A stretch of 64,000 nt of DNA from Nitrosopumilaceae archaeon (GTDB lineage Archaea > Thermoproteota > Nitrososphaeria > Nitrososphaerales > Nitrosopumilaceae): assembly GCA_965207375.1 (NCBI GenBank), contig CBDBMG010000003.1:608001-672000 (forward strand), read 5' to 3'. Of this stretch, positions 1 to 23,907 are shown piece by piece. Numbering within the stretch: the stretch's first letter is position 1; each line of letters begins with the position of its first letter. The notes under the pieces were generated by a model that did no database searches, had not been told where the DNA came from, and saw nothing but the letters and a program-made list of their open reading frames with translations. Both the position numbers and the translations under genes were made by a program.

Positions 1-2164
1 AGCACAAATACGTATATAGGTAATATATATGTGGCTAAGGGTCTATAGGTGCATTATAACCTATAGCCCTAGTAGCTATATAATATATTAATTACAATTG
101 TCTAAATGAGTAAAGTTAACATGCAGATTTGGATTTTTTACTGTGTAAGACAGCCATATGGCTGATATAACACAGGGGGTGCAACTGCACAACCCCAAAT
201 AATTCAAAACATACATTCTAAATTATATGATTATTTAATTATCTAAGTGTTCGGTCCAGCTGCCAGTCATACATAATCACAAAGATTTTAGGTGATATGA
301 GAATTCATCTAGAGTAGCTAGTACATTCAATTAATTCATTCGGTAAGTTATTCCAATCAGTAATGGTATGAGGGAAAAAGCAGCCATAGTAGATTGCTTC
401 ATAAAAAGCAGATAGTAGCTAGATAAAAGCAGATAGTAGCTAGATTGCTTTTCTGATAGTAGTTGGATGATGTTATAGGTGGTATTAATCGCTGATAGTG
501 AGATAAACGTGTAAAGTGAGACATAGAATGAGGTAAGTAATGTTCTGGGATATTCATTGATATCTGGTGGGTCTTGATGTAAAAATTTATAAAAAGTAAT
601 TAGCTAATTATTTGCAATACTTTCTGCATTCATATAAGGTGGACCACTGAAGATCATTCATCATAATTATGGCAGGGGCGTATCTACACCCGGGCCTACG
701 CCCTGGTTAATTTGACTTGTGCCCTGGTAAATTAAATTCATGATTTAATATAAATTCATGATTTAATATAAATGCGCATAAATAAGCGACCGATTATAAA
801 AATACTGCAACATATTACAATTATACAATAATATTTGTTTCTTCAAGTAGAAAACTACCAAAGAAACTATCAAACTACAACATATAACTGAATACAGAGG
901 CAATTGACAAAATCGGTTTTGTATTCTAACGCATTTTGTATTGCCGCCTCACTGAATGCAGCACTGATGTGTTTTAATGGCTATGGAGATTAACAGCAGA
1001 TGGTGATTTTTACTATCTCTTCTTGTGCAGGTGGTGAAATTGCCCTTCCTGATTTTCCAGATTATTTACAAATACTGTGTGACCACTGATAGATAATCAG
1101 TACACACTATCTATGGTATGACCTTAGATTATACTGTACACTGTGACAGATAACTAGCTAAGCCTCATCACCTTACAGGGTTTAGTCTTGGTTCAGTTTT
1201 CCTAGGCAATCCATTGAGTAGACAAAACCACTGAGTAGCTATAGTGTAGAGTAAACTATCAATTATCAGACAATGTGCATACTAATATGGTATGAAAATT
1301 TAGCATCAAATGTAGTTTATTTATACCCATATCATCTTATAGCTACATATCTTAGATGTTTGCAATAGAAAGTAGCTAGTTTGCATTAAAAAATCTCTGG
1401 TACAATTTTGTGTACCCTTACTTAGCTAACGTGCACTCGAGTTTTGTGTTGCCAGACCCTTTCATGCAGGGCATTTATTGCTTGCTGTATAATTATAAGT
1501 GGCTATGCAAAAGAGTTTGGAACAGTTCACAGAAACACCGATTTCTGATGAATGATGATCACTTACGTAGTTGAATATGCATGTGGATTGAACCATAAAC
1601 TCACTAAAGTAGCATCATCTTCATCATGCTGGTCAGCGTTACTTCTTTTGCCCCGCACTGAGTTCTCAGCCATTACTATCATTAACAAAAAAATTAAAAA
1701 TCCTCATCAAAAATTGATAGTTATACTTGTACAAGTTAGCTACCTGCTTGTAAGTTAAAAAATTATATGGTAAAACAAATTTCACAGATAAATTCCATCA
1801 GGCTATAGCTAGTGATGAGCTGGATATCCATCTCAATACCATAAAATATCATGAAAACACCAAACAGAATTGTAGCTAAACTGGCAGGGGTTTTAAAACC
1901 TTTGCTTAGTTTTAAGTTAGGTTATAGTTTAATATGTAGCTACGTACCTGTCAAAAGCAGGAATCAGAATCCACTCTCAAACTATGCATAGCTTCTTTTA
2001 CTGGTATTTAAATCTGTATCTGTGCTGTCCTTGTATTTCTACATCATAAATACACAACATATATGACGGTAGATATCCCTGTGATATGCTATGGTATATA
2101 TTCTGTGTATTTTATGTGAAGCAGGTGATATCCCAGATATTATATGCAAAGTGGGCGCACCCAC

Positions 2165-2353
2165 AGTAGGTCGGCACGTGAGATGAACATTGCTGTTTCC
2201 GTTTGATTAAGAACCATGGAACCACATTCCATTAATGCAGCTGGGTGGACTGGAGCAATGTGAGCAAAGTTCTTTACTCAAGAAAACAACAATAACAGCT
2301 GGGCATTAAACTGGGGACCTCTTGGTCAGCAATCCAACAGTGCTCTAACTAGG
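2165..2353 (-). mobile_element. tRNA-derived SINE remnant (second copy ~25420-25615)
   Basis: The reverse strand has a tRNA-like head (TAGTTAGAGCAC...GGTCCCCAGTTTAATGCCC) followed by a SINE core-like motif, TCACATTGCTCCAGTCCACCCAGCTG. Confidence 0.6.
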
Positions 2354-2473
<120 letters not shown>

Positions 2474-2479
2474 TACAAT

Positions 2480-2710
2480 ATGCGCCATCGTTAAGTTACA
2501 TGAGGTGAAGGGGATATTACCTTAAGATACTACTTATTCATGGGGTTATTGGACAGCACATTTCCTACCACTATAGGGGCCACCAATATAGGGTTTTCAA
2601 GCATCAGGTTTGCTACAAAACCAGAATCAATTTTTTCATGCACAATTTGATACTGTTGAGGCTAATACAATTAAGAAACATTGAGATGAGTACTGGACTA
2701 ATATTATGTA
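2480..2710 (+). mobile_element. CR1/L2-type LINE 3' fragment (paralog ~25740-25970)
   Basis: The paralog translates as TTRGHQYRVFK...KTRINFF...VEA...KHLDEYW, matching the C-terminus of CR1 ORF2. Confidence 0.65.
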
Positions 2711-3295
2711 TCTCTTGTATTTCTCCAGGTAACAGGCCTGGTTGTTGTCACCCTTATAATAATAATGTGTTGTTAAGGCGAAATATGTTACCCTAGGGGG
2801 CCACACATTACTGTGACTTTTAGTGATATTTGTTGGGGAAACATGCATGCATTCCTAGTGGTTCCTGAGAAGCATATATTATAATATTATTATTTATTAG
2901 GTCATTCTTTAGGCTCCTCTGGCTTTGGGTACAGGCTCTGCCTTTGTATACACCCTCCAGTCAGCGGTGCCTAACTGGTAAATTACTAGCTAAGCTGGCA
3001 AGGATTTTCGTATATCTAATCTTCTGGCTTTAAGCCTGATAAGGTTATAAAACCATCAACCAACTATAATATATGTAGCTAGCTAGGTACCTGTTGAAAA
3101 CAATTCCTCCGGGCTGGTGGAGTGGAACTACCGCGCACCTTCTTTCAAAGTATTTATATCAAGGATTAAATATGTATCTGTGCTGTCCTTGTATTTCTAA
3201 ATCATAAATACACATCATATATGACGGTAGATATCCCTGTCATATGGTATCATAAACTACGGTATATATCCCGTATATTTTATGCGAAGCGGGTG

Positions 3296-5484
<2,189 letters not shown>

Positions 5485-6110
5485 GTTAAGCCAAAGGCTG
5501 GTGAGGTGTATCTTTACCTCAATGACGATGAATCCAAAAATGGTACGTCACGGCATGTACGTATACGCATATTCGTAGTATATACTGAGCATATATATCG
5601 CTATAGTAAATAGCATAATTTTTCTAGATGATTGGCGCAGTGATCAGTACAGGTGGAGCAACCAAGGAGTTCACCTCCTTCCTAAGAAGAACCCGAAAGT
5701 GAAAAAATCATATTTTCAAATTGATACTCCTGCATGAGGGACCTTTATCAAGCATGCATAGCTATCAGCTAGTTAATTCACAGATTTCTCAAAAAACGCA
5801 GTGTTGATTCATTACCTCGGAGATGATAACTATGCAGTCAATTTTCCCCATGAGAATTCCAGTGAGGAATCACAAAGACCTTATAGCAGAACCTGTTTGT
5901 CAGTAATGAAAAGTTTGAAAGATGGATGTAAGTATATAGCTAGTACAGCAACAAATGTTTATCGAAAACATGTTACTGAGGTTCCTCCAGAAACACACTT
6001 GGCTGTTTTGCAGCCAAGAAATACCAGACAAGTTAAGAACATCAGATCAATGGTGCAAAGACAACAGGGGCTTTCACATGATGGTCTATACAATCTTCAT
6101 GAATTCCTTG
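5485..6110 (+). pseudogene. MULE/Mutator-type transposase N-terminal region (CG-1/WRKY-GCM1-like), disrupted and truncated
   Basis: VKPKAGEVYLY..|intron ~5543-5627|DDWRSDQYRWSNQG..LPKKNPKVKKSYF..LIHYLGD..FPH..RPYSRT..PRNTRQVKN..LSHDGLYNLHE, with frameshifts near 5735-5790. Confidence 0.7.
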
Positions 6111-8399
6111 GAGAACCACTTGGATGATGTAGATTTTTTACTACCATCTGCAACAGAAAAAAGCAGTAGTAAGTTAAAGCAATCATCTGTAGCTAGATTA
6201 TATTTTCTCTGTGATTTAACACATTTGTACGTACCATATACATACCTATGTTAAGAGGGATAGTTACTAGCTAATACTATTCAAAGATTTATATTTTTGA
6301 CTTGATGACAGCCCTCAAAATATATATTTGAAGTTATAGATTGTCAATGACTCCTAACTGAAAATGTACAGAAACTTTGTTCTACTAAATTGGACTTTGT
6401 TCAGCAGCCTTTTGCTGAAATGGGTTAGAAAATCCCTATTACTGATTTAGAGCTACGTATGCAATGTTAGTTAGCCTATATACTTACAACTAGGTTGTAA
6501 TGAAATCTCAAATCAGGAAATGATATATCTATGGAGGATATCTTCACCTTCTCACACAGTGAATACCACAGATGACTCATACATGTACATAGAGGTTGGC
6601 AACCATTTCAAAGTGCTAATGTTTTATTTATCAATTTATTTGCTATGTAGAGAAAAAGCAATGAAATTCTGATGTATTTTACCATTGATGTGTACTTGTG
6701 GATGCTATACAGAAAATTTCATAACATGCCTGTTCTAAGGAGAGAAGAATATTACGTAGATAAGAAGTACTTTTCACGAGACATCGAATGGAGCTGCGTC
6801 TGCCCCAAATGCCTCCCTTTGTAATATGATATACATTTTATTGTAATAATAAATTAATGGTGTTGGTTGACACTGATTAACGTTAATGTAGAAATGTATA
6901 GCTATAGCCATACTTTCAAGCAAAATAATAATTGATTTTATAGCAACACTCGGATAGCAACACGAATTGTGACATAGAAATGGGACACACTCTATGCGTA
7001 CCGCTGGACACCGGGATGTACCCAGTCTGCATGAGATATTTAAGCGCCGAAGGCGTGGGTATACGCCTCTATTAGCTGCATACATCTGAAGGGTGTACAA
7101 CTCTGATATTTGGACCAAATATCTTACTATGTATAGTTTGCTTAGACATGTACAGTTGTTGTACAAGGCTCCAGGTAATCAAGGTGTCAGTCCTGGTTTT
7201 ACGGATTGGCTTATGTAGCTAACTGTATAGCTAACTAGAGCTGTAAAACTTAACCAGTTAACTGAATAATCGACCAGTTATTTTTGAAATTTCAGTTACC
7301 AGTTATTTTTTCTATAACCTGGTAACTGGTTTTTTAATATTTTCATGCAAAAATGAATGGCACATTCTTGTGTGGTAGGATGATTGTAGATAAACTAACA
7401 TGTCTAATATTGTCTGACATGCACACTTTCAAGCTATGGGTCCAGTTATTTACCATTTTTTGTAACTTTGGAGCAACAGGTGTTTTTGTTGTTTTCCACA
7501 TATACAATAAATAGAGATCTCTAGAAAATCAAGATAGACGAGGAGCATCAGACACACACAAGAAGTTTAATAGAAGGGCCGGTTTTACTGGTAGATATGG
7601 ATAGGAGGTGAAGAATCACCGCCAAACCAGAGTATAGTATAGTCAGCTTGTGAACTGAGTGTAGAAACTATACTAAAAGTAGCTAGTTAGCTAGCTACAT
7701 ATAATCATTTTTGATGAGCATACAAACAACGTGCAGTTTTTAGTTCTTAATATATGGTCAATGGTCATGTTTTTGCTATGGGCCTTTAGCTAGCTACTAT
7801 AAATCTTGTTTAAAAATTGCTGTAGAGCATGTATATATAAGCAGTCTATGTAGAAAACTTTGTAGCTAATCATTGTTGCTGCAAAGACACTAACACCAAT
7901 AAGCTAGCTATTGTATGTAGTTATTTACTTGCATTGCACCAAACCTTTGATGGTACTATGAACACCTTGGGACCAAGGTGTCCTAGCTGAATTACCAGAT
8001 GGGCTTGTGTAGTAAAAGGCTATTTCGGGATCTCAACTAAGAGTGTGGATTACGCGGGTGCCCTCATTTTCAAGTATCCACATTTAACATGTTAACATAA
8101 TTCCACTGTAAGTACATTATATAATTATATTGGTTAAATGCACTCTTACACACTTATGTATGATTACAAGGTTCTGTAATCTAATATAGCAACTATATTA
8201 GCTATATCTTTTAGGTATAGCTATATAGCTACCTATACAGTGATATAGTGTTATAACTTAGCTATACAGTAGCTATAGCCACACTGGCATTATATGCATG
8301 CACTTTGAGAAACACCTTGTAGCTAGCTACAAGCTCTGCCCTTTTTGTGGATACCCCCAGCGCCTAACTAGCTGAAGTCTGAGGTAATTATACTCACAA

Positions 8400-8990
8400 T
8401 ACATTTTGTTACCATGGTAATGGTGCTATCCATATGAGTAGAGGGAAATGTATTTTCAAAGTGACCATTTAACCTTTACAAATTATATCCATACTAGAAT
8501 TACTGGTAAACATGCACATGGACTGTCCTGCAGTGCTACTGCAGCTCCCATTAGCATAGCAGATATATCCTCATAATACCCTTTCAGATTGGACGTTCCT
8601 CACGATAATCCACACTTCACAAAATTTGTAGATAGCTATGTAAAATTTAACTCTTCAGAAATTCTGTCTAGAGTATATTTTGAGTCTTTTGTTTCTTAGA
8701 GAATTTCATGGATATAAGGTTGAATACTGCACTTAGTCAGTCTGCAACAGCAGGAGGTGCAGTGCCACAGTCAGGTAATTAACGCTGCAATTTGTGTGCT
8801 GCTATTAGTTCACTACCTACCTCTACAGATCATTCAATGGTGTTATCTTAACAAGCCTGATGTAGCTACGTACCCCATGGATGTATATGTGAGTCAGGTA
8901 TACATTTACTATAACCGTTTGATACTACAGACCATGACTACATACATACATACAAGCAGAAAAGCTGAAAGGAACTGCAGAGAGTGCAAA
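8400..8990 (+). repeat. Diverged inverted duplicate of ~10030-10655, including small exons
   Basis: For example ACATTTTGTTACCATGGTAATGGTGCTATCCA (8401) is the reverse complement of ~10630-10662. The exons QQQEVQCHSQ and IIQWCY.NK occur in both copies. Confidence 0.85.
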
Positions 8991-11334
8991 CTTAACTTCT
9001 AAATTCTAAAGGACATCCTTACTGTATGTTCGTTAAACAGATAATTATGCAGTGTACGTAGAGATGTAGAAGTCAACTGCAGTTTCATGCATAGCAAAAG
9101 AGAGAGAGACCTAGCTATAGAGTATAGTCTAGATTTGATATTGGTAGCTTGACTACATCGACTGCATAATTGTATATATTTACATTGTAGTAGATATAGA
9201 AGCTCGATAGCTATGTGACATATAGTTATAGGGTCTTGTGAATGGTACAAGCTATAGCTGGATCCTGTGAATGGTACAAAGTTTGTGGACTAGTGCTTTT
9301 TAAAATCATGCACAATTGCAATTTTTGACCTGTATATGTAGCTATCCTTATACGGGGATATATTTTGCTTCTACGCATGCATGTTTCATAAGATATCACT
9401 GTTATAGTAATTACACTGGCTCTATGAATACAAATCTTAAAGCAGTTAATGCCAGTTATTAAAATATCTTCTAAATTAAAGAAGTTATAAATCGGTAGCT
9501 TCAGGTACACACTGATGACTCTTTGACTAGTGCTTTTTCATCTCTATATGCCCTATGTTATACGTATTCTCTTGTCTTTGTAGTAAAATATTTCTCTGAG
9601 TACTTTGTTATAGAGTTCAGGTGATAGTTCATGTGCCATGTGGAGGTTTATGGTGTCCAGCTGCAGCACCATATATATCCAGGTGCTAAAGCTCAAATAT
9701 GCATGAGATCATGAGAGATAGAAAGGTAATGCCTCTCTATCACTATCCAAAAATTCAAAGAACAAAAGTAAATTTGTCCCTCCTCTTCCTACATATCCCT
9801 CGAATAATGTAGTTGCAACTTAGTGGATACATAGATATACAATAGCCAATAAAAACCAAGATTGATAGAGTTATATGTTACAACCTTATAGTCATGTATC
9901 GCTAGTAATTCACTACATGGTTTGTTATGTGTTAGTATAATGCAATACTCATAATAATATTATATAATTTATCATGTGAAATAATCAAGCACATCACATG
10001 AAGAAAATAGTATGTCACACATCTTCGTGTCCATCTCTGCAGCTTTTCTGCTTGTATGTACATAGTCATGGCCTGTAGTATCAATGATACAAGTAACAGT
10101 TATTGTAAATGCATACCTCACTCACATATACATCCACGGGGTGCATACATCACACTTGTTAACATAACACCATTGAATAATCTGTAGAGGTAGGTTGTGA
10201 ACTAATGGCAGCACACAAATTACAGCATTATTTACCTGACTGTGGCACTGCACCTCCTGCTGTTGAAGATTGAGCGAGTGAAGTATTCGACCTGCATAAA
10301 TGGTATGTAAATATCCAAGCTGTTACACAGTGACTTAATAACTATTACAATACTGCATAGTTATATAGCAGAAAATTCTCTAAGGTGAAAATTCCAATAC
10401 AACAAAGTGTGGATTATAGTGAGGACCGTCCAATCTAAAAGGTATTATGAGGACGTATCTGCTACGCTAATGGGAGCTGCAGTAGCAGGACAGTCCATGT
10501 GCATGTTTACCAGTAATTCTAGTATGGGTATATTGGAATATAATTTGTAAAGTTTAAATGGTCACTTTGAAAAGAAATTTCCCCCTATACAGTACTGTGG
10601 TATATACATGTGTTCCAGAATACAATTCATGTGGATAGCACCATTACCATGGTAACAAAATGTACTGACCAACAAATATGTATGCTAAATACTTATACTC
10701 CTACAGTATATCTAAATAGAAAATTTATCATGAGCAACAAATTATTATCACAGCAACAAATATAACTATCAGTATCTCACCATGCACAAGTTAAGTCTCT
10801 CCTTTCTATATTTAGCTTAAAAAATTAAGATAATATATATAGGACCATATGGGTGTACAACTGCTGCCAGATATGTCCTTTGCTCTTTAGTGTCTGATAC
10901 ATGTGTACCTGCTTTTCTGGCATGTGCCGTCATATAGTAGAGACCCAGCGGTCTTTTAGCCAACCTTACTCCTTCCACCCCACTATGCCCACTCACTACC
11001 TCAACATGCAAATCCTCATCTTTAATGGCACTACTAAATTACAAAACCAGCAAATCCAAATAATAATGTGACATCCTGTAGTTTTATAGACCCAATCACA
11101 AAATTAATGTGCATGCACAATGCACAAGAGGGCACAGCGTCAACCTCCTAACTTACTGTTTGTCTGCCTACTACAAAGTACATATATTATAACTAACATG
11201 AAACACCCTCAGATAGAGACGTATTGTTTAGTTGTCCCCTATCATCTAGTCTTAGATCCACCCATGCACAGATGTGTATGCAACACACATGCATACACTC
11301 ATGCATACCTATATACTGTATACAGCGTATATCT

Positions 11335-11490
<156 letters not shown>

Positions 11491-11547
11491 AACTGGAAAG
11501 GAGCAACTTCAGAAGTAATATTTACTACCGAAGCCTTGTGAAAGTGG

Positions 11548-12030
11548 ACTAAAAAATAGTACCTTCAATGTATGAAGAATCGTTGACCTGAAGTCGTTTG
11601 ATATCCATGACACGAGTTTTCCGTACGCGCCTTATAAACTCCTTCCTGTAATCAAAAATATTTTAGGCGCCCGTCGTTTTTTTTTCTTTCTTTCTTCTTC
11701 TTTCTTTCATTTTCATCGCACACTTTTTGTGCGCTTGCGCGTGAATTCCAGAATTTCTATTTGAAACACTCACACTTATTTGTCTAATAACTCACTCATT
11801 TCTGCATGGATTTCAACCAAATTTGTATCAACACTTTTCCTATGTATGCTCTACCAGACAAACAACTTTCAGCATAAAGCAAATACCTAACTGTATTTGA
11901 GAGATACTTTTACACTGCATGTTGATAGTTTCCATAACTCGGACCCCCTCTAAATCATTTGAATAAAATTTAAGATACACAAACTATATTGATATATGAA
12001 TCTTCAGGATAAGTTTAAAGAAATTGTGAC
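11548..12030 (+). mobile_element. Interspersed non-autonomous repeat, possibly Helitron/Helentron-like (inverted copy ~24200-24737)
   Basis: ACTAAAAAATAGTACCTTCAATGTATGAAGAATCGTTGACCTGAAG matches the reverse complement of ~24690-24737. Internal simple-repeat tract. Family assignment is tentative. Confidence 0.6.
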
Positions 12031-12475
12031 ACTTCAGTTTGTCAAAATTAGCCTTTAATGATCATTCATGCTTATGTGCCATGCAAGATAATTATACCAA
12101 ACAACACGAGGTGAACAGTGGCCACACATTATAAATAGGAGACCACTGTCCTGTTAGCATGCACAAAATTTATTTATAGCATTATAATATATCTTCTCCT
12201 GTAGATCAATCAACAGTACAGGACATGATGGCAATGATGTAGTCTTCATTGAGGTTCTTCACTGTTCTCCACCTATATACATAGCTAACAATTATAGTAA
12301 TACGTACTTTATATGTTCATTAGCTACTTGGGGGAAATACAAGCTGGGGAAACACCTAAAGTATTAACTTCCAGCTCCTCTCCCCTTTAAATTTTTATTA
12401 CTCTGCATACTTCATATAAGGTTTCTTGTCAGGACTTGTTTATAATTGTAATCTATATTTACAAAAAGCAGTGAT

Positions 12476-12773
12476 ATGCTAAACAAAAACAGCCTGGCTG
12501 TAAAAAAAGTGCGAGGCCAATCAGAAGCCACAATGGCTATAAGCGACCAAAATCTCTGATATCAAGTAAGGCCAAGAAGTTGAACATTTTATTAAGAATC
12601 CTTTTACTTGAATGACATACAATAGTTTACAGGGCATTTTCACAACTATGATTGGCTTTGTCACTTGGCCTTCTTGGCCTTACTTGATATCAGAGATTTT
12701 GGTCGCTTATAGCCATTGTGGCTTCTGATTGGCCTCGCACTTTTTTTACAGCCAGGCTGTTTTTGTTTAGCAT
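12476..12773. repeat. Foldback with ~103-bp arms (12476-12578 / 12671-12773), same family as 23481-23907
   Basis: The arms read as exact reverse complements by eye. Confidence 0.9.
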
Positions 12774-12979
12774 GAGATATACGCACTGATATCAGTGCGT
12801 ATATCTCATTAACCCTGGGGTATCATGCATTATGGTAAATATAATATATATGTACATGATGATATATATGTAACACTTTCACACCTCAGATCAAAGGAAA
12901 TTCCAGTGTATATATATGATATTGCACTGGCTGTGGAATGTTAACGAGATATACGCACTGATATGAGGTGTGAAAGTGT

Positions 12980-13038
<59 letters not shown>

Positions 13039-13089
13039 TTATGTACTCTTGGTTATCATCATGTACATATATTATATTTACCATAATGC

Positions 13090-13335
13090 ATGATGGTCAC
13101 TCCAGCTGTAGGCAGCCGAGTAAGATTAATAAAAGGCAATGAGTGTGCTGGAATTGCAACATTAATCGATGGAGATACACTACATGGATACACGTTTCCT
13201 AGAACCTTTCAAAAAGTGATTCTGGAAGCTGTAAAGCCAGGAGTACCTCCTGAGTTGAAGGGACCATTTGAAGATGATTGTCTTTGTAATGGACAAATTA
13301 CAGCATGGCCCTTTAATCAAATGGAGTGTATGTGA
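13090..13335 (+). CDS. Orphan exon/ORF resembling the small domain at the C-terminus of CACTA/En-Spm accessory proteins (DUF8039/Tnp1-like)
   Basis: Motif LHG.tfP..fqKV.le.v.P..p..l.gPf.dd....g.itAWP, recognised from memory and not searched. Confidence 0.45.
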   Translation: MMVTPAVGSRVRLIKGNECAGIATLIDGDTLHGYTFPRTFQKVILEAVKPGVPPELKGPFEDDCLCNGQITAWPFNQMECM

Positions 13336-14299
13336 AATATGCAATGTACATATACGTACATATTACTCTGTTGATATGGATATTTAATCTAAACTCCAAC
13401 ATATCTTTTACCACCTATGCTAAGAATAATTAAGGCACACAAAATAATTGTATGACAACACTTAACAAGTATGTATAGCTAACTATTAATTGTTTATTTT
13501 ATATTACAGTTGGTAGTAATACAGTATCCATGGCAACAGTAGCCACTAGCAACAGTGGTTCAGGTACATATGATCACTTGTAGTACACACGTATGTATTA
13601 ATAATTGTTTATTTTTTACATTACAGTTCATTGTACGTAGCTAGTACGTATTTTTATACATGATAACATCAAGAAACGTAATGTTTCCCAGTTACTTTGA
13701 TTCTCAACATGGTGCTGTAGTTTGTTTGTAATAACAATGGAGCAACTTTGGCTGGCAGAAATTTTATCAGGATTACAGAAACAAATCTTTCCTTTAGGAT
13801 TAGCATTTTTAAGTATCTTGTATTTACCTGCATTGATCTGACGACAGTCATAATAATGTCCAAGCAAAAACCAGCCTAGTTCACACTTCCGATTGTAATT
13901 TGTTAGGAAAGACATGTATATACACAGCTCAAATTTACAGGGTGAGTAGATATAACATCACTTTATCATCATTGAGCTGTGTTTTGACATTCCCAAAATT
14001 TTCATGGGCAATTAATCAGAGGTGTACGTGATTTGGTTTTTGCTCATACAGCTGCAGTCACATATGCATAGGCATCAGTCACAAGATACGTAGATGTATT
14101 ATACATAAATATTATATGCATGTGTGTACTGATGTATTATTATTATACATTCATTTGTACATACATCTTATGGAACAAATCAACTCCTTCCTCAATATGT
14201 AACACCCTTTACACTGACTTTACCCTCAACACTGGAGGTGTGTAGCTGCACTGCGAGGCTACCGATTCATTATTAACCACTTTAAACTACAAAAAACTA

Positions 14300-14417
14300 C
14301 TATGTACTACTACTACTACTACTACTACCACCACTACCACTACCACTACCACTACCACTACCACTACCACCACCACCACCACTACTACTACTACCACTAC
14401 TACTACTACTACTACTA
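14300..14417. repeat. (ACT)n/(ACC)n microsatellite at the 3' side of the R4-like element
   Basis: Direct inspection. Confidence 0.95.
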
Positions 14418-15785
14418 AATTTTCATAAATGATTCGCATGTACAACAGTACAGTAAAATAAGAACTATGACATGTACAATTACATAAGAAATAGTTCATT
14501 GGTGAATGGGTATTGTTCTCAATACTTGTGAGGTCCCAATCAGCACAGCTTTCTGTAAGTGGCCAAACAGTTTCAGTGTGAACCCTGGGATTTTCTTTAA
14601 AAACTGTAAGCAATGAGAGGAAACCACGCCCGTACATCCCAGAACAACTGGGATAATGGTAACTGGCATATTATACATTTGGTGGAAATCTGCTGCCAGG
14701 GAGCAATACTTATTAATCTTTTCATCCTCTTTAGTTGAAACATTAATATTTGCTGGGCAAGAAATCTCAATAAAGAATATCTCTTGCTGGTGAAAATCAT
14801 AAAGCACAATGTCAGGGCGATTACTTGGATGGTTATGACTTGTAACCAATCCGAAATCCCATAATATCTTGGCAATGGAAGATTCAATCACTGGCGGAGG
14901 CTTATGACTATACCATGATCTGCCACACGACTGAATAGAGTAAAACTTCATCAAGTGCCAATGAATCACAGCAGCAACCAAATTGTGGCGGTGCAAATAT
15001 GCTGTAGTGGCAAGTATGGGGCAGGCTGCCAAAAGGTGCACTATTGTCTCCTCAGATGTACCACATATTCTACACATCAATGAGGGAATAGATTTGTGCA
15101 TCACCTTGGCCTCAATTACTCTAGTTGCAAGGACTTGATCCTGCACGGCCAATATAGTAGATTCTGTCTCAGAGTGAAGATGCAGTTTAAGCCAGTTAAA
15201 ACTACTTCGTTTATCCACCACATCCGAGTTAACAAAAGAGAAATACCGGCCATGCAAAGGCTTAGCCAGTAAAGCTGACATCAACAAACTTTTCTGTTTC
15301 TTACAAATCTCACTCTTCAAAGAAAACATATCACACTGCCGCAAATCACACGGCACTGACAAAGATGCACAATAAGACACAGCCCTAGAAATCAAAGAGG
15401 AACGTGGTGGTAACAGTTCATCTAATTTAAAACACATGCCCACCAAGCTATCAGTAGATGTAGAGAGGTGGCATGCAAATGAGACCATTCTTCTATAGAA
15501 AAGATTCTCCACATTAATCAGGCCCAAACCACCAGCACTTCGAGGCAAATAGAGACGTTCCACAGCACTCCGTGGATGGTGACTGTAAGCTGCTGTCAAC
15601 ACTTTCCTGGTTTTCACATCAAATTGAGCAATCTCTGTTTTAGTCCAAGGAATAATTCCAAAACCATACGACAATAGTGGGACACAAAATGAGTTAGTTG
15701 CTCTAACCTTACGAGGGCCACTCAAGAAAGATTTCCATATCAAAGATAATCGCTTTAAATATACCTCCAGTATCGTCTTCTTGCT
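14418..15785 (-). mobile_element. 5'-truncated R4/Dong-like non-LTR retrotransposon (RT C-terminal region, CCHC knuckle, restriction-like endonuclease)
   Basis: Open frame to the stop at 14496: ERLYLPRSAGGLGL, CRICG..EETIVHLLAAC, RHN, ILWDF..NRPDIV, IEISCP, K..KY, PVVLGCTG. Confidence 0.9.
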
Positions 15786-15910
<125 letters not shown>

Positions 15911-16860
15911 AGTACAACCTTAATTTTAATAAAACATACACACACACAAAAACTGCATGAACCTGAGGGTGGGGGCCTGCACAGTGCAATATTCTAAGCA
16001 CACTGTGCCCAAGTGAGCTTAAGGGAAAAAAACCTGATAGACTCTTCTCTTTTTTTGTCTGCCTGGAAAAAACCTGTGTGCACAACCACCCTCAAAATTG
16101 TTAGCGTAAATTACTGTATGTGTGAAAAAGTCTACAGCAGCATCGGCAATCAGGAGCTGGACAGTTGTCAAGGAATTAAACACAATACATTCATCAGGGT
16201 GGGTGGGTGGGAGGTAGCCTATGCTAGGGGTATTGCAGCATAGAATTGAACACGTGTTCATACATTAATTAGCTTATATACCCAAACTTACCCTGATACC
16301 ACACGTGCCAATCACGTGCATACCTTATTCCGGAAGGAGGTTATATGCTGTCTAATTCACTATGTTCAACCGACAGAAAATACACAAGGCATAATTGATT
16401 CACAATTATTGTACATGTCCTCTAGATCTGTCCTGTATGTATCTCTTCAAACACTAAAGTACTACTGCCCCATGATCAACTTTTTACCAATTTAATTTTT
16501 GTTAAAATATTTGGACAAGGAATAATGGAAATGACACAAAGTGTGAATCAACTTTTCCTGGCCTAAAGTTTTTGATCATTTCCTCATGCATATGCCGTCA
16601 AATATAATAAATATACTGACAAAAATCCATGCAATTGCAACACAGTATTCTAGTGTCAATGTTAATGTATAATCTTTCATTGGATCAGTTATTGGTCTAT
16701 TTGCATTGGTCTTGCATATAAACATGACTTCTTCAATATTCTTTAATTTGTTTTAGATAACTCCCAGGAGTGTGGTCATACGGTACATCTACAAAAGTAT
16801 ACATTAAACGATGTGCATGTGAATATACATTATAATTATATACATACATAATGCATAATT

Positions 16861-17244
16861 TAGGCTTGCGCCTAATATGCCGGCATAATTTGAGGAATAA
16901 TAGGTACCATTTTATACGAGAATTATTCTGGAATAATAGGTCATTAGTGAGCATAAAATTTATTAAACGATCATCCGCCCACGCAATTAATTATAGCGCA
17001 TATTGAAAATATTTTGTCTCCAACTCGGCAATCACTTTGTGGACTTTCTCAATGTTATATGGTACTTTCTGTGTAAGGTCTTAATTCTAATCAATAGTTA
17101 GTTGCTATAGCTATTATTTTCTTACTGTCAGAACGGAATAATTTGGGAATAATAGGTGGTATTTTAAAGAATAATAGGGAAAGATTTTGAGAAGTTCTGG
17201 AAGGAATAATAGGTAAATTTTTGAGCATATTAGGCGCATCCCTA
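16861..17244. mobile_element. hAT-like MITE in a KDZ intron
   Basis: TIRs TAGGCTTGCGCCTAATATGC / GCATATTAGGCGCATCCCTA. Decayed 8-bp TSD GCATAATT/GCAAAACT. Related ends near 44955-45460 and 60770. Confidence 0.7.
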
Positions 17245-18919
17245 GCAAAACTACCTTTTCCTTGTTTGATCAACTTCAGTATCTCTTTATCCTTTTCAGT
17301 TAGAAAGTCATCTTCACTAATAGTAGCCTTTTAATAATACATACCATCATAAAAGACATGCTGTAGCTATGCAAGAATATACCTGATCTCTTAATGCTTG
17401 TAAATAACATTCCTTGTTAAATCTATCTATTCTCCAAGTTTGTTCTTCCATTTCTTCATCACTCTCAGACTCATCAGCTGTGGGTGATTCTACTCTGTAT
17501 GCTACGTACATCACACAGACGTACACACAACAATATTACTATACTAGCATACCTGATAAATGGTTTTCACTACTGTAGCTAGTGGTTGCTGTAATATAAA
17601 ATAATTGTATTAATATGTATGTGTGTACTATAAGTGATCATATGTACCTGAATCACTGTTGCTAGTGACTACTGTTGCTACGGATAAAGACATATTACTA
17701 CCAACTATAATGTATTAATAGCATGCAACTATAAAAATGGCATTTCTGTTACTACCACTTTAACATAAAATAAATTATATACTAAGTAGAATAATTATAT
17801 TACGTATGTGCATACTTGTTACCTGATGAGATAAAATCACTGCTTTTAAATTGATAATCATCATTTTCAAGTAATAAATAACTATTTGAACCTATAAAAG
17901 ATTATAGCTATACCATTATATGCATTTACTTACTTGTGTATTATACGTATCTATATGACATACCAGTATGCACAGCTTCATCTTCATCTTCACTACACTC
18001 ATCACTTGAACATTGTATTGACTCAGGAACACGCAAGTAAACATCATAATCATTTGTATCCTCTAAGCTGTGACTCTCACTATCCAAACAATTCTCTAAT
18101 TCAATTTCTTGTTTTCAAGCTCAGATAAAGATGTATACTGCAAAAAACAAGTCAATGAGTTTAATTTAGAGTAACATTTCCTTGTACTAAATTTCAGCAA
18201 GGAAATACATGCTGCAGTATGCAAGTTATCATTTTGTTCACTATGCTCCAAGGCTTTAATTTGGTCACAAAGTAATTGATATTTAGAGATATAATGTTGA
18301 GCACAACAGTTCATCTCTTCCTTTAACCTTAAAATTTCTTCTTGAGCTCTATTAGTTTGGTGATACAACTGGACTGCTTTTGCCTTAAGGGATATGGGTA
18401 CTTCAGTAGTAGTAAATATGCATCCATTATATATACTGTTGGTTAAATCAGTAACTTCTTCCCATGTTAGTTGAGACATCTGGTTTAAATCAGAATTGTA
18501 CTTAGAAAGTGAAATTTTCAGCTGTTTGCTGACAATATTTATTCTCCGTGACAACCGAACTGCTATTTTCTGACCATCTACACAATTATATGTAATTGCA
18601 TACACATGTACGACAACATACTCTACTGTATATTAGAGTACATTAATTTATAAGAAATATTAACATATAGCATTAACATACGTACATAAAACATACCAGC
18701 ATATTTTGATTTTAGTCTAAGAAGAAACCATCTTTCTCTTGCTTCCTTTTGCATTTTTATTCTTAGTTTCTGCTTCTTTTTAGATTTACCAGTAGCAATT
18801 GTATCTTTATACTCTTGTGATGTGGTCAACCAACGATACTCAACATTATAATTACTTTCAGTTAACTGTAGTTTTTGTTCTATCCTGATGGTATAATATA
18901 TACATGCATACATGGATAC

Positions 18920-19230
18920 TAAGACTCAAACAAATATTCAGATTAATTAATATTCATCTTACTTTATTCCATTCAAAAGTAGCCAACAAATTATTTGTTT
19001 ACTGAGTTTTTGGACACTGGGTTAAAAGCAATAGCATATACTGTACGAAATTTCAAGTACGTAACAATCAATGTTTAATTTAAGTGAATCATAAATGAGA
19101 CAGTAGTCATAAATTGACTAAAAGTAGTGTCATTTTACCACTTTCATATGCAAAAGAATATTTGGACTATATCTGTTTGAAATTTGAATATTCGAATATC
19201 AAAATAATTATACTATTCATTTGAGCCCTA
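18920..19230. mobile_element. hAT-type MITE in a KDZ intron
   Basis: TIR ~TAGGGCTCAAA. Perfect 8-bp TSD ATGGATAC (18912-18919 and 19231-19238). Second copy at 33593-33893. Confidence 0.85.
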
Positions 19231-19503
19231 ATGGATACATAAACAGAGACATGCAATATGTAATCAAAATAAATGTACAGTAATGATCGATGCTTATTGA
19301 CAATTTAACAGCTACAAAATATGCATGTGTACACATGTAAGCTATATTTTCCTGCATTCATGCAAACACTCATTAAAAATAGTACTATATACACTGGTAC
19401 TAGTTTCTCTTCTCTGATCTTATCATATCGGTCATTCAAAGTTTCTCATAACTCACTGTACAATGTACTTTTCTTGATCATTATTATGTACATATGTACG
19501 TAG

Positions 19504-19594
<91 letters not shown>

Positions 19595-22496
19595 CGCACC
19601 CAAACAGTTTACATTTACTAATTATAGATTAAGTGCTTATTCTTAGTAATCAGCTTTCAAGTATACATGCATACAGTATCCCAACGATTAATGCAAATAC
19701 CCATCTGTAGCAAAATTGTGAATCAGTATAAAGCTTATAGGTCCTTCCCACCCTTGGCTATACCACTGTGTACACATATACTTACTTAATCAAATGAGAT
19801 AACAGCAAACGAACATTATTAGACAAAACATCCGTGCAATCCATTAGTGCATTTCTACATAATAACACGTATTTATGTATACTGTATACTGTATTATTGT
19901 TATAAACAGAACAAGCAATTATTACAGAGTTACCTAATAATGTTAGCTGCATCAATAAGACAAACATAATCTTCTTGCCAAGTTGCAGGTAAATCTTGAG
20001 GTGCTACATAAATAGTATGAAACATCAAGGAATGCAATATTTAACATTTTACATACAAGAATGGTGAAAAGTACACTCCTTAGCTTCCAAAACCCATTGT
20101 TCAACATCAACATCAGTTATAGAATCTGTGTAAATAAACATATTGTGTAATTATTAGCTAATAATATAGGTCCAAATATAAATCATGCATAATGTAGTTA
20201 CATATACAAACTGATATACATAGCTATGTAGCATATATACTTGAGGGATCATCCTTTAGCACTGTTAAACCTTTTAGAGCATCTGAGTGGAATTTCTTTG
20301 CATGATCCATACGTTTGCACAGTAAATGACCTGATAAAATTTACATAAATTATAAACATAACTAATTGATCATACCAATCTTCCCTGAGGTCTTTTGTCT
20401 ATGATGCAGCAAAGCATCAGTCAGTATGTCTATGCGATGTGATGGCCGCATCTCTTTTGTCATGGCAGAAAAATTTCGGAGATAAGCCCAAAGACGTTCA
20501 ACTCCTTCGCCATCACTTAATCCAAATCCAGTCATGTTCCTTGGATTTCTTTCATTCTGCAAAGTTAATGCTTATATGGTTACAAGTAAGAATTAATATA
20601 TACTATATACGTATATTAGCACACACTACTAGTTTATTGATATAGGCATTGATTGTATATAAAAACAAATTGAGTGGAAACACATATGGTTACCATGACA
20701 TCAAGAGTTCAATATTATCACACTTAGCTATTATAAATTACATGAGTTAAGTACACACCTGGCATTGTAAAATGTGCCCATATGCATGAAACACAGGAAC
20801 TGCAAATGTTACGTTCTTCAGAAGATCATTACGTTTATTTGCCTGGAAATGATCATACATACCAATAATCAAAAGTGTGACAGATAATTATACAGAATCA
20901 AATATATAGTTGATATACAATTTAATATAGCCAGACTTATCATTATAAAAATTAAATGTCCTAAATATATATGAATAAACTAATGCCTAACAGGTTGCAT
21001 GTGCAGTTCTACTAATAGCTTTGTCACAGTTAACTTATGTATTTTGCAAAGTAATTAATGAATTATAATACATGTGGTACTTAAGGCACACATGACAATT
21101 CTAACAAAACAATTATGTAAGTACCTTAAGATGCTTGACTAGCACACAAGCTATATCATACATGAGTTGTATGGTATGGTTTGGGTACATTTGTTTCAGC
21201 TTTTCAAGCAGGTAGACACTGTAAGATATCCTAGCATATAATTATTTGATCAAGTAAACATATAATTATTGTAACCACATGTAACCTTTCCCCATGGCAT
21301 AAATTAACAAAACACAGTGGAAACTCGTGTTGACAAACTGCACCCATTATTCCTGTCTCTTTAAGTGCTGAGAAGAGATTGTTGGCATTACCTGCTACAA
21401 AATTACTACACTCCTACAAATAATAGTAATAAAACTTAGGAAATTGTTAAACTTTAATTACTTGATTATTGTAATTTGTACCAGCTTGAGAATCATACTG
21501 CGTTACATAATGGTCAACTTCATCTTGATCAAAAAATAATTTAGTAGCAGCAATTGGTGGATGTACACTGCTTCCAGCAGATTTTCTCCGACAGAGACCA
21601 AAATTTAAAATTTGCATCAATTGAAATGGTAATAACACACCTGTCTGAAGAGAAAAAGTATATGCATACACAATTAAGTAGCTACGTATGTGTAACTCTG
21701 CACAAGACTTGTATATACATGCACTCTAACCTTTGGGCATGCTGGACATTTAGTACTGCTTACATCAAAACTAATATCCTTCAAATCCCGCAATTTTCCT
21801 TTACATAACCTAATAATGTGTTCACATGCATATTCATATATAAATGCAAGGATTAACCTAACCGATACTCTTCAAAACAGTCAATCAAAACTGGATATAT
21901 CTTGCAAGGGAGCTGAAGAAAAAATAAAAAATGCAAAGAATTATACAACTTAGTAGGTAGCTAATGAGCTTTTAATTTGACAATTAGAATGAGTGTGGCA
22001 TACCTAATATATTAGTGCTAATAATGTTTATACTTATATTTTGACATACACTTTTCATTTTATCTTTCAAAAGAAATTCTACAGCATCACAGTAGTCATT
22101 CACTGCTATCTGACATTCTAAAAGCAATGCCTCAAGCCAATCCAAAAATGAAAATGAAAATGCCAATACTGGTCGACTTGGTGAGGCAGGCCAGTAACCA
22201 AGCTCCATGATTCTTAATGAATCATTTTTGCACTTACAAAATGAGATATTAAGCTGACGAGGAACTCCTATATACACATACATTGAAAGATTTTTGCAAT
22301 TTATTCCATGTACCAACCCTCAATGTGAGAAAACACGTGACAAGCCGATTGTGTACTGTTTCACAAGTAAGTGTGGTTATTGGAAAATCCATTGGTGGCA
22401 ATTCCAAAGGAACAAAACAGTTATCCTGCATTGAAAACAGCCTGCATGCATGCAAAACACACATGCGTATATACATGGACACGTGCATATATATAT

Positions 22497-22556
<60 letters not shown>

Positions 22557-23480
22557 ACTGTATGTATGTTAACAAACCTTCCATACTTCAGGACAATGGT
22601 GGAAGTTATGCATGTTATGAGTAATATAACAACATTCCAAGCACATTAAATATGGTCCACATAGAGTGCATCTTGTAGTTGCAATGCTTGAACAGGCAAA
22701 ACACTCTACTTCCTTTTGCAGAGCATGCCTGTTAATCATTACTGTATATGCATTCTCCCTGATTTCCATCCACTTCTCAGCCAATCTAAGTTTACGTTTT
22801 GTATGTGCAGTTGTAGTCATATCTAGTACTTCATCATTAATACTAAAGTTATCTTCATCTAAATAGTTGTCAGGTATATCGTTTGGTGTCTTTGCTGAAT
22901 GTCGTGAATAAATTACTTCTTTCAAAATTTTATATTTCTTTTTTCTTCCAGTAGGGTTCGGAGATAAAAATTTAAACTAAACCTGTTCTCCTTTTCATCC
23001 TTTAAAATGTACAAGTTAATTTGACTTATAATCAAAATATCAATGTATACACAATGTATCATACATAGCCATATACAGATGCATGGTAAAGCTTTTTGCC
23101 AATGGTAGCTACGTATTACTGAAAGAAATTTTTATAGCTAAGATTAAAATTTTGTTGACTTCTTGACTACCAATGCTTTCCACTCAGTGTTTTGTGAAGA
23201 TTTACGTACAATACCATACATGTTATGTCATACCCTCAGATTGAGGTCATGCCCTCAGATTAACCATACTATCCGCTTTATATCTTCAGAATCTGTGTTA
23301 TATAACCTCACTATAGGTGATTTGGTTTTATCGATATCAACAGACTATGCTCATACTGAGTGCACAGAAAGCTATCAGTTAAACTAAGAGGGTCTTAACA
23401 CTGATTTGTAAAGCAGGCTAGGGCATGGCTTTTGTGCTAAAAAGCAGTTATGCCCAATTATAAAACAACCTATGTAATTT

Positions 23481-23907
23481 ATATGCTAAACAAAAACACC
23501 TTGGGCGTAAAAAAGTGCGAGGCCAATCAGAAGCCACAATGGTTATATAAGCGACCAAAAACTCTGATATCAAGTAAGGCCAAGAAGTTGAACATTTTAT
23601 TAAGAATTCTTTCACTTGAATGACATACAATAGTTTACAGGGCACTTTCACAACTATGATTGGCTTTGTCACTTGGCCACCTTTTTGTACTATCATCTTT
23701 TATATTTAAGGTGGCCAAGTGACAAAGCCAATCATAGTTGTGAAAATGCCCTGTAAACTATTGTATGTCATTCAAGTAAAAGGATTCATAAAATGTTCAA
23801 CTTCTTGGCCTTACTTGATATCAGAGTTTTTGGTCGCTTATATAACCATTGTGGCTTCTGATTGGCCTCGCACTTTTTTACACCCAAGGTGTTTTTGTTT
23901 AGCATAT
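23481..23907. repeat. Foldback with ~205-bp inverted arms and a short AT spacer
   Basis: 23481-23685 matches the reverse complement of 23708-23907 with few mismatches. Confidence 0.9.

Follow-up and report, generated by a model that had tools for sequence, protein, structure and literature searches.

Among mobile elements whose transposases belong to the KDZ superfamily, Zisupton is known for its accessory domains, namely SAP, SWIM and Ulp1. In fungi, KDZ elements carry accessory genes such as TET/JBP, as set out in PMC12730594. The locus described here lies on the minus strand of a stretch of 64,000 nucleotides (nt), referred to as the window, which corresponds to positions 608001-672000 of contig C4 in an assembly of four contigs (C1-C4). 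What it has in common with those accessory-bearing systems is the transposase superfamily only; none of their accessory modules is fused to it. An initial annotation of this DNA had proposed that a KDZ transposase continues, at 15960-17970, through small acidic/Ser exons into an unassigned C-terminal domain of about 270 residues. Our analysis indicates that 15960-17970 very probably contains the terminal exons of a KDZ gene that is expressed and rich in introns and whose protein finishes in a tail of 183 residues, together with the non-coding DNA behind it. The fused domain of about 270 residues is not a real feature.

The KDZ gene and its closest relatives

The assignment to the KDZ transposases is borne out by Pfam, as both the CxC1 and the KDZ models score above their cut-offs on the minus strand, where the matching open reading frame (ORF) pieces lie between 22976 and 18096. 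In particular, KDZ (PF18758) reaches 43.3 bits in the exon ORF 20365-20571 and 29.7 bits at 21234-21413 (cut-off 26.6), CxC1 (PF18802) reaches 47 bits (cut-off 26.9) and CxC2 33.7 bits (cut-off 27). Collinear matches to the window were also obtained by tblastn with three proteins, all of them automatic gene models: P0002, an uncharacterized protein of 793 residues from Dysidea avara, P0003 from Geodia barretti and P0011 from Dendronephthya gigantea. Residues 5-664 of P0002 are covered by 11 segments with 36-83% identity. The gene resembles KDZ transposases with PF18758 and PF18802 in having a Cys cluster and then the KDZ core, in the expected order, with a long helical region behind the core as in the homologues. 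It differs from them in being split into more than 15 exons and in the frame-breaking indels of the window haplotype. From what is known of the family (PMC12730594 and the Pfam descriptions), the Cys-rich N-terminus and the KDZ core would bind and cut DNA. The gene model presented here covers the 3' part, and upstream exon boundaries for which no coordinates are given are approximate.

Two further independent KDZ loci are present in the assembly, at C3:92736-99195 (44-70% identical) and at C4:24890-28417 (32-63%), and an inverted duplicate of the latter, 100% identical, occupies C3:224130-227657. Within the eukaryote-like contigs, 2.1 Mb in all, no other copy of the window gene exceeds about 70% protein identity. 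The helical exon was also used to search genome_contigs and metagenome_contigs, and no orthologous locus was returned.

The contigs differ widely in character. Stop-to-stop ORFs of at least 150 residues fill 80% of the first 400 kb of C1 (2.16 Mb), which is bacterium-like, and only 10-18% of C2-C4, where microsatellites, fragments of long interspersed nuclear elements (LINEs) and intron-split genes are present. Since C2-C4 are eukaryote-like and the nearest named relatives of the KDZ gene come from the sponges Dysidea avara and Geodia barretti, plus one octocoral, the window is most likely of sponge origin and was deposited together with a bacterial genome.

Splicing of the 3' part and the end of the reading frame

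Sequencing evidence was taken from contigs, not reads, of the runs X1, X8, X9 and X11, compared over window positions 13000-23500. X8, X9 and X11 come from two studies; none of the 12 runs found carries RNA on record, and the evidence of expression consists of the intron-less contigs. Contigs of X8, X9 and X11 skip 18578-18696, 17892-17963, 17678-17822, 17589-17647, 17502-17552 and 17328-17382, and all six skipped parts are bounded by GT..AG on the minus strand after small shifts allowed in contig placement. None of the six joints occurs in X1, whose contigs read through the introns. An X11 contig of 2686 nt contains, in this order, the pieces 22050-22268, 21461-21638, 20374-20556, 18697-18883, 17962-18577 and 16600-16789, and between the last two it has 323 nt, as compared to 324 nt summed over the five mini-exons of the window. 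The sites of the last intron are canonical (donor 17254-17253, acceptor AG 16790-16789). The acceptor that the initial annotation had placed at about 16788 is thus real, as this contig links the KDZ exons to 16600-16789. The small acidic/Ser exons described behind the helical exon are equally real, as shown by their GT-AG joints in X8, X9 and X11, but the list was incomplete: two mini-exons (17588-17553 and 17327-17255) had been missed, and VGSNMSLSV, listed as an exon, is intron, the real 30-nt exon 17677-17648 beginning at the 'AT' that follows.

In the window itself, the stop at 18096-18098 closes the frame. Each of the four runs (X1, X8, X9 and X11) has 7 extra nt behind 18111 that the window lacks, and with them the frame switches to the acidic reading, which removes this stop. 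Starting at 18577 and spanning six junctions, the corrected frame runs for 334 codons before it reaches a stop at 16733-16735; its course would lead from the helical exon (18577-17964) through five mini-exons of 30-119 nt and then through 18 codons to that stop. All three frames stop at most 18 codons after 16788, so that the end is independent of phase. The X11 contig shows 0 differences from the window over 16600-16789, and the expressed form therefore contains the stop at 16733-16735. Over the interval 18577-16789 the same contig falls short of the window sequence plus the 7 nt by 9 nt, or 3 codons, and thus, by arithmetic, it enters the last exon in the same frame. The last exon contributes 18 residues to the KDZ protein, which ends there.

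An acidic, Ser-rich tail

From the end of the helical region, the modelled tail comprises 183 residues, with 46 Asp and Glu, 37 Ser and Thr and 15 Lys and Arg, and it is probably disordered. Once the 7 nt are included, P0002 aligns across their site and then continues as an acidic/Ser tail of about 130 residues with no further domain; P0011 likewise ends in a similar tail and no further domain. In both proteins the acidic/Ser-rich tail follows directly after the same helical region, whereas P0003 ends short, after the KDZ core. P0002 differs from the window gene in lacking the N-terminal exon, and the two tails are alike in composition only. The tail can thus be regarded as an acidic/Ser appendage of the kind seen in the sponge and coral homologues. 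This acidic, phosphorylatable appendage may have a regulatory or partner-binding role.

One part of the tail is conserved. Indeed, the exon 17501-17383 is similar to an ORF that lies 2.1 kb downstream of the C3 paralogue and has the same first two residues (17/33 identical with E 1.2e-7 when 10 kb were searched without correction for composition; 9/20 identical with E 4e-5 after such correction). Three pieces of the tail region (17094-18114) contain neither TET/JBP nor any other Pfam family. Word-based searches for longer proteins found none with the tail exon ORF 17350-17535, nor, when restricted to longer proteins, with the helical exon.

These findings bear on the possibility that the gene ends at 18096-18098, with the mini-exons being exons of the 3' untranslated region (UTR) or the intron-less contigs deriving from a retrocopy or another locus. 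The stop is indeed present in the window sequence, the paralogue frames stop 9-14 codons past the end of homology, and no library type is recorded for the runs. We nevertheless consider such an end very unlikely, as all four runs carry the 7 nt that remove the stop, a further 180 codons are then open over six junctions, P0002 aligns across the site, and the protein sequence encoded by exon 17501-17383 is also conserved in a paralogue with 44% identity over the helical exon; the absence of the joints from X1 also speaks against it.

Several observations weigh against a spliced gene with a translated tail. The junction 17255>16788 is not among the joints found and is placed from contig coordinates and the canonical sites. 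Within exon 18577-17964, 23 gap letters occur in the contigs of X9 and X11, and an open frame inside the tail is presumed for them; in the window haplotype its own stop at 18096 would leave the tail untranslated. The library type of X8, X9 and X11 lacks a record, so that an RNA origin is deduced from their intron-less contigs. The similarity between the tail and P0002 is compositional, as 32 of 300 shuffles reach the observed score. Finally, neither the 3' end of the transcript nor a poly(A) site was found, AATAAA being absent and ATTAAA occurring at 16747 and 16496.

The DNA behind the stop codon

The initial annotation had read 16788-15960 as one long decayed exon. The peptides that it quoted are present in the sequence, but they come from all three frames, with stops between them, and the frame of the gene ends at 16733-16735. 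Between 15960 and 16732 the three minus frames have 13, 16 and 18 stops (47 in total). The longest ORF on either strand has 81 residues (16022-16264). An ORF of at least this length arises in 41% of 1000 order-1 Markov simulations and in 55% of the 430 genomic windows of 773 bp taken from C2-C4. To be read through, the stretch needs at least 8 frame switches (simulation mean 8.1, genomic median 8), as compared to 1, at the 7-nt gap, for the real exon 18577-17964. There is no open frame beyond chance in 15960-16732.

Homology searches gave a concordant picture. No Pfam match was obtained for the 15 pieces scanned, from 28 ORF pieces of at least 20 residues in 15960-16732, and no Rfam match over 13000-18200. 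None of 6 ORF pieces of the stretch matches elsewhere in the assembly; the stretch has no relative at the two independent KDZ paralogue loci (one of them present as two identical copies), and nothing like it is found in P0002, P0003 or P0011. Homologues of the domain linked to KDZ genes, as the initial annotation would imply, are thus missing from the assembly and from these three proteins. When the 81-residue ORF was compared by phmmer with 1.84 billion representatives, 7 matches and no protein family emerged. The sole clear match is a mechanical ORF of 90 residues, 85% identical, which represents another copy or allele of the same DNA and follows it into the neighbouring microsatellite, with a frame slip. 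The other six are weak, with E values between 2.6e-6 and 5e-4 and 3-10 matched stretches per hit, and the three of them that were inspected, which do not include P0016, P0018 and P0019, are tandem-repeat proteins.

It could be argued that 16788-15960 is the decayed exon of what was once an accessory domain of about 270 residues, possibly an ADP-ribosyltransferase, given that the exon start at 16788 is real, that the 81-residue ORF exists at 16022-16264 and that other KDZ elements carry accessory genes, with TET/JBP in fungi (PMC12730594). This reading is hardly credible in view of the stop at 16733-16735 in a spliced contig, of 47 stops together with an ORF length and a need for 8 frame switches that are at chance level, and of the lack of anything alike behind the paralogues, in P0002, P0003 or P0011, or, for the 15 pieces scanned, in Pfam. 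In addition, its distal part, 15960-16218, lies within a segment that X1 and X8 contigs skip. The resemblance to NEURL4-type ADP-ribosyltransferase motifs, put forward as speculation, dissolves on inspection, since WHVWYQG is in one frame and TPSIGY and YQVF are in another, again with stops between, and Pfam gave no ADP-ribosyltransferase match in a scan without a model dedicated to that domain.

As the 3' end of a KDZ gene, 16732 down to 15960 would consist of 3' UTR and then of intergenic DNA separating the gene from a convergent neighbour on the plus strand. The intergenic part appears patched with a small dispersed repeat and with the edge of an indel-polymorphic, LINE-bearing segment. This segment, 14271-16218, overlaps the claimed domain by its distal 259 bp (15960-16218) and is bridged in X8 by the joint 14270>16219, with 87 nt on the shorter side. 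It contains a 5'-truncated LINE fragment with reverse transcriptase (14296-15752, minus strand; ORF 14496-16091; copies on C3) and two similar microsatellites (14287-14430 and 15755-15923). Of the dispersed repeats, that at 15936-16075 has a copy on C2, and one of 58 bp at 16330-16387 has copies at 88-90% on C2 and C3. Gaps in the cover of X8, X9 and X11 within 15808-16158 were not used as evidence.

A functional, non-coding role of 15960-16732 was also considered, in which the convergent 3' UTRs would overlap in the allele without the LINE and antisense or double-stranded RNA would regulate the transposase. In keeping with such an overlap, X8 shows the convergent exon 13087-13335 as well as splicing on the plus strand at 13561-13623, an X8 contig bridges 14270>16219 with 87 nt on its shorter side, and the paralogues, too, have a convergent gene next to them. 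The contigs carry no strand information, transcript ends are not mapped and the stretch shows no sequence conservation, which makes this role unlikely; in any case, it would add to the reading of a spliced gene with an acidic tail rather than replace it.

The window's copy of the gene

Three lesions distinguish the window's copy, all of them in short tandem contexts. The first consists of 2 surplus nt at 22327-22328, in the exon at about 22426-22318, which shift the frame before the CxC1 exon. The second lies in exon 21644-21462 (21610-21640), where 2 and 7 nt are surplus, the position of the 7 nt being deduced from the gap count; here the overall frame is kept, and the stretch I-S-I-D-A-N-F (I-S-I-D-[AG]-N-F in P0002 and P0003) is replaced by 12 different residues. 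We take the Asp of this stretch to be catalytic. The third is the lack of 7 nt at 18111, which creates the stop at 18096-18098. The window copy thus has neither an intact Asp-containing stretch nor an uninterrupted frame. To judge from gap counts, the spliced contigs appear to be without these lesions.

X1 has contigs with and without the 2-nt difference at 21635, which is therefore a real polymorphism. Differences other than that at 21635 could still stem from assembly error. The window haplotype is probably a disabled allele.

Features of the locus

The features are collected in Table 1. The 386-bp repeat inside the last intron has four near-full copies at 89-94% elsewhere, plus partial copies, and an X1 contig shows its empty site (joint 16860>17247, side 30). 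Termini of a KDZ element were not found, and the sole inverted repeats that flank the locus belong to a high-copy foldback family. Indeed, the inverted repeats 12476-12773 and 23481-23907 were considered as element ends and rejected, as they are a foldback repeat with 127 and 194 matching pieces in the assembly, respectively. This family, of about 430 bp, has many matching pieces at 88-96% identity.

Table 1. Coordinates of the KDZ gene, its repeats and the neighbouring exons (window positions unless a contig is named)
Feature	Position	Strand	Basis
Upstream coding exons, whole span	18697..22976	-	Pfam, tblastn, contig joints of X8/X9/X11, splice sites
Cys-rich N-terminal exon	22578-22976	-	upstream KDZ part
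Exon	~22426-22318	-	approximate boundaries
CxC1 exon	22267-22050	-	Pfam CxC1, contig pieces
KDZ-core exons, among them	21644-21462, from 21413, 20556-20374	-	Pfam KDZ, contig pieces
Exon	18883-18697	-	contig pieces and joint 18577>18697
Large helical exon running into acidic stretch	17964..18577	-	joints 18577>18697, 17889>17962
Mini-exon 1, 69 nt (SNSYLLLENDD exon of the initial annotation)	17823..17891	-	GT-AG joints X8/X9/X11, open frame
Mini-exon 2, 30 nt, Ser/Thr-rich	17648..17677	-	GT-AG joints
Mini-exon 3, 36 nt, Ser/Thr-rich	17553..17588	-	GT-AG joints
Mini-exon 4, 119 nt; acidic Ser cluster, then motif around W-R-I...Y-L	17383..17501	-	joints, paralogue match
Mini-exon 5, 73 nt	17255..17327	-	joint 17326>17382; downstream junction inferred
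Last exon, coding end: 18 residues and stop 16733-16735	16733..16788	-	acceptor, translation, X11 contig
Probable 3' UTR as far as contig cover	16600..16732	-	X11 piece 16600-16789
386-bp non-autonomous repeat with terminal inverted repeats, inside last intron (16789-17254)	16861..17246		copies, termini read
Non-coding DNA past contig-covered UTR, includes 58-bp repeat	16219..16599		stops in all frames, no Pfam
1948-bp segment absent or replaced in another allele	14271..16218		joint 14270>16219 in X1 and X8
Last coding exon of convergent neighbour gene, separate from KDZ gene	13087..13335	+	C4 paralogue-locus match
GTF2I-like/homeodomain exons, C4 locus	C4:19453-19734, 21035-21298 (L011:4454-4735, 6036-6299)	convergent
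GTF2I-like exon, C3 locus	C3:86022-86195 (L012 about 4023-4196)	convergent

Paralogous loci and the convergent neighbour

The large helical exon is 44% identical to that of the C3 paralogue, and at all loci the homology to the window ends at the end of this exon (window 18099-18632). Among 14 ORF pieces of at least 30 residues below 18115 and outside the dispersed repeat, none matches the paralogues with the low-complexity filter on. The duplicated C4 locus comes with its neighbours (C4:15000-29500 and C3:224000-235000), and the 100% identical inverted copies are either a haplotig or a recent duplication.

The convergent neighbour of the KDZ gene has a transcript spliced at 13561-13623 (X8 joint, GT..AG on the plus strand). 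Its exon 13087-13335 is 27% identical over 81 residues (E 9e-7) to C4:22919-23227 (L011:7920-8228), an exon that lies 1.7 kb behind the C4 KDZ paralogue and is likewise convergent to it. The window exon belongs to no Pfam family, and its best Protein Atlas score of 0.80 is below the useful range.

Both independent paralogue loci have a GTF2I-like repeat exon on the convergent strand, with 41% identity between the loci; that at C4 scores 34.1 bits (cut-off 27) and is accompanied by a homeodomain exon (24.6 bits, cut-off 22.9) and a long Ser/Thr-rich tandem repeat. Within the assembly, GTF2I-like exons were found only at the KDZ paralogue loci and not in the window. Indeed, 63 plus-strand ORFs of window positions 1-13139 gave no Pfam family, and there is no GTF2I-like or homeodomain exon upstream of 13087. 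None of the papers listed in a literature search mentions both KDZ transposase and GTF2I.

It is possible, although doubtful, that the KDZ loci of this genome are two-gene units, in which a motif-tailed transposase and a convergent accessory gene would meet with their 3' ends at 15960-16732. The tail motif, an acidic Ser cluster and then W-R-I...Y-L, would then be a partner-binding or regulatory module, and the accessory gene would be recognisable by a last exon conserved between the window and one paralogue and by the homeodomain and GTF2I-like exons at the paralogue loci.

Some sequence relationships were observed among the mini-exons and the convergent side of the locus. The mini-exon 17677-17648, together with the intron downstream of it, recurs as an inverted copy on the plus strand, at a distance of 4 kb (13525-13603 versus 17608-17686, 79 nt at 90%; 126 nt at 83% in a longer alignment), and the X8 contig is spliced at this copy, at 13561-13623, with GT..AG on the plus strand. 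Mini-exon 3 weakly resembles mini-exon 2, with 20/24 nt matching a copy of the latter.

Concluding remarks

Collectively, these data remove a false lead, since this KDZ transposase carries neither a new accessory domain nor a fused ADP-ribosyltransferase. The locus shows an ordinary gene end, that of an animal KDZ transposase with an acidic tail that annotated relatives also show. The outcome is a well-supported picture of how an animal KDZ gene ends, complete with mini-exons, acidic tail and stop, and an example of two haplotypes at one transposase locus, one of them probably disabled and the other apparently intact and expressed.

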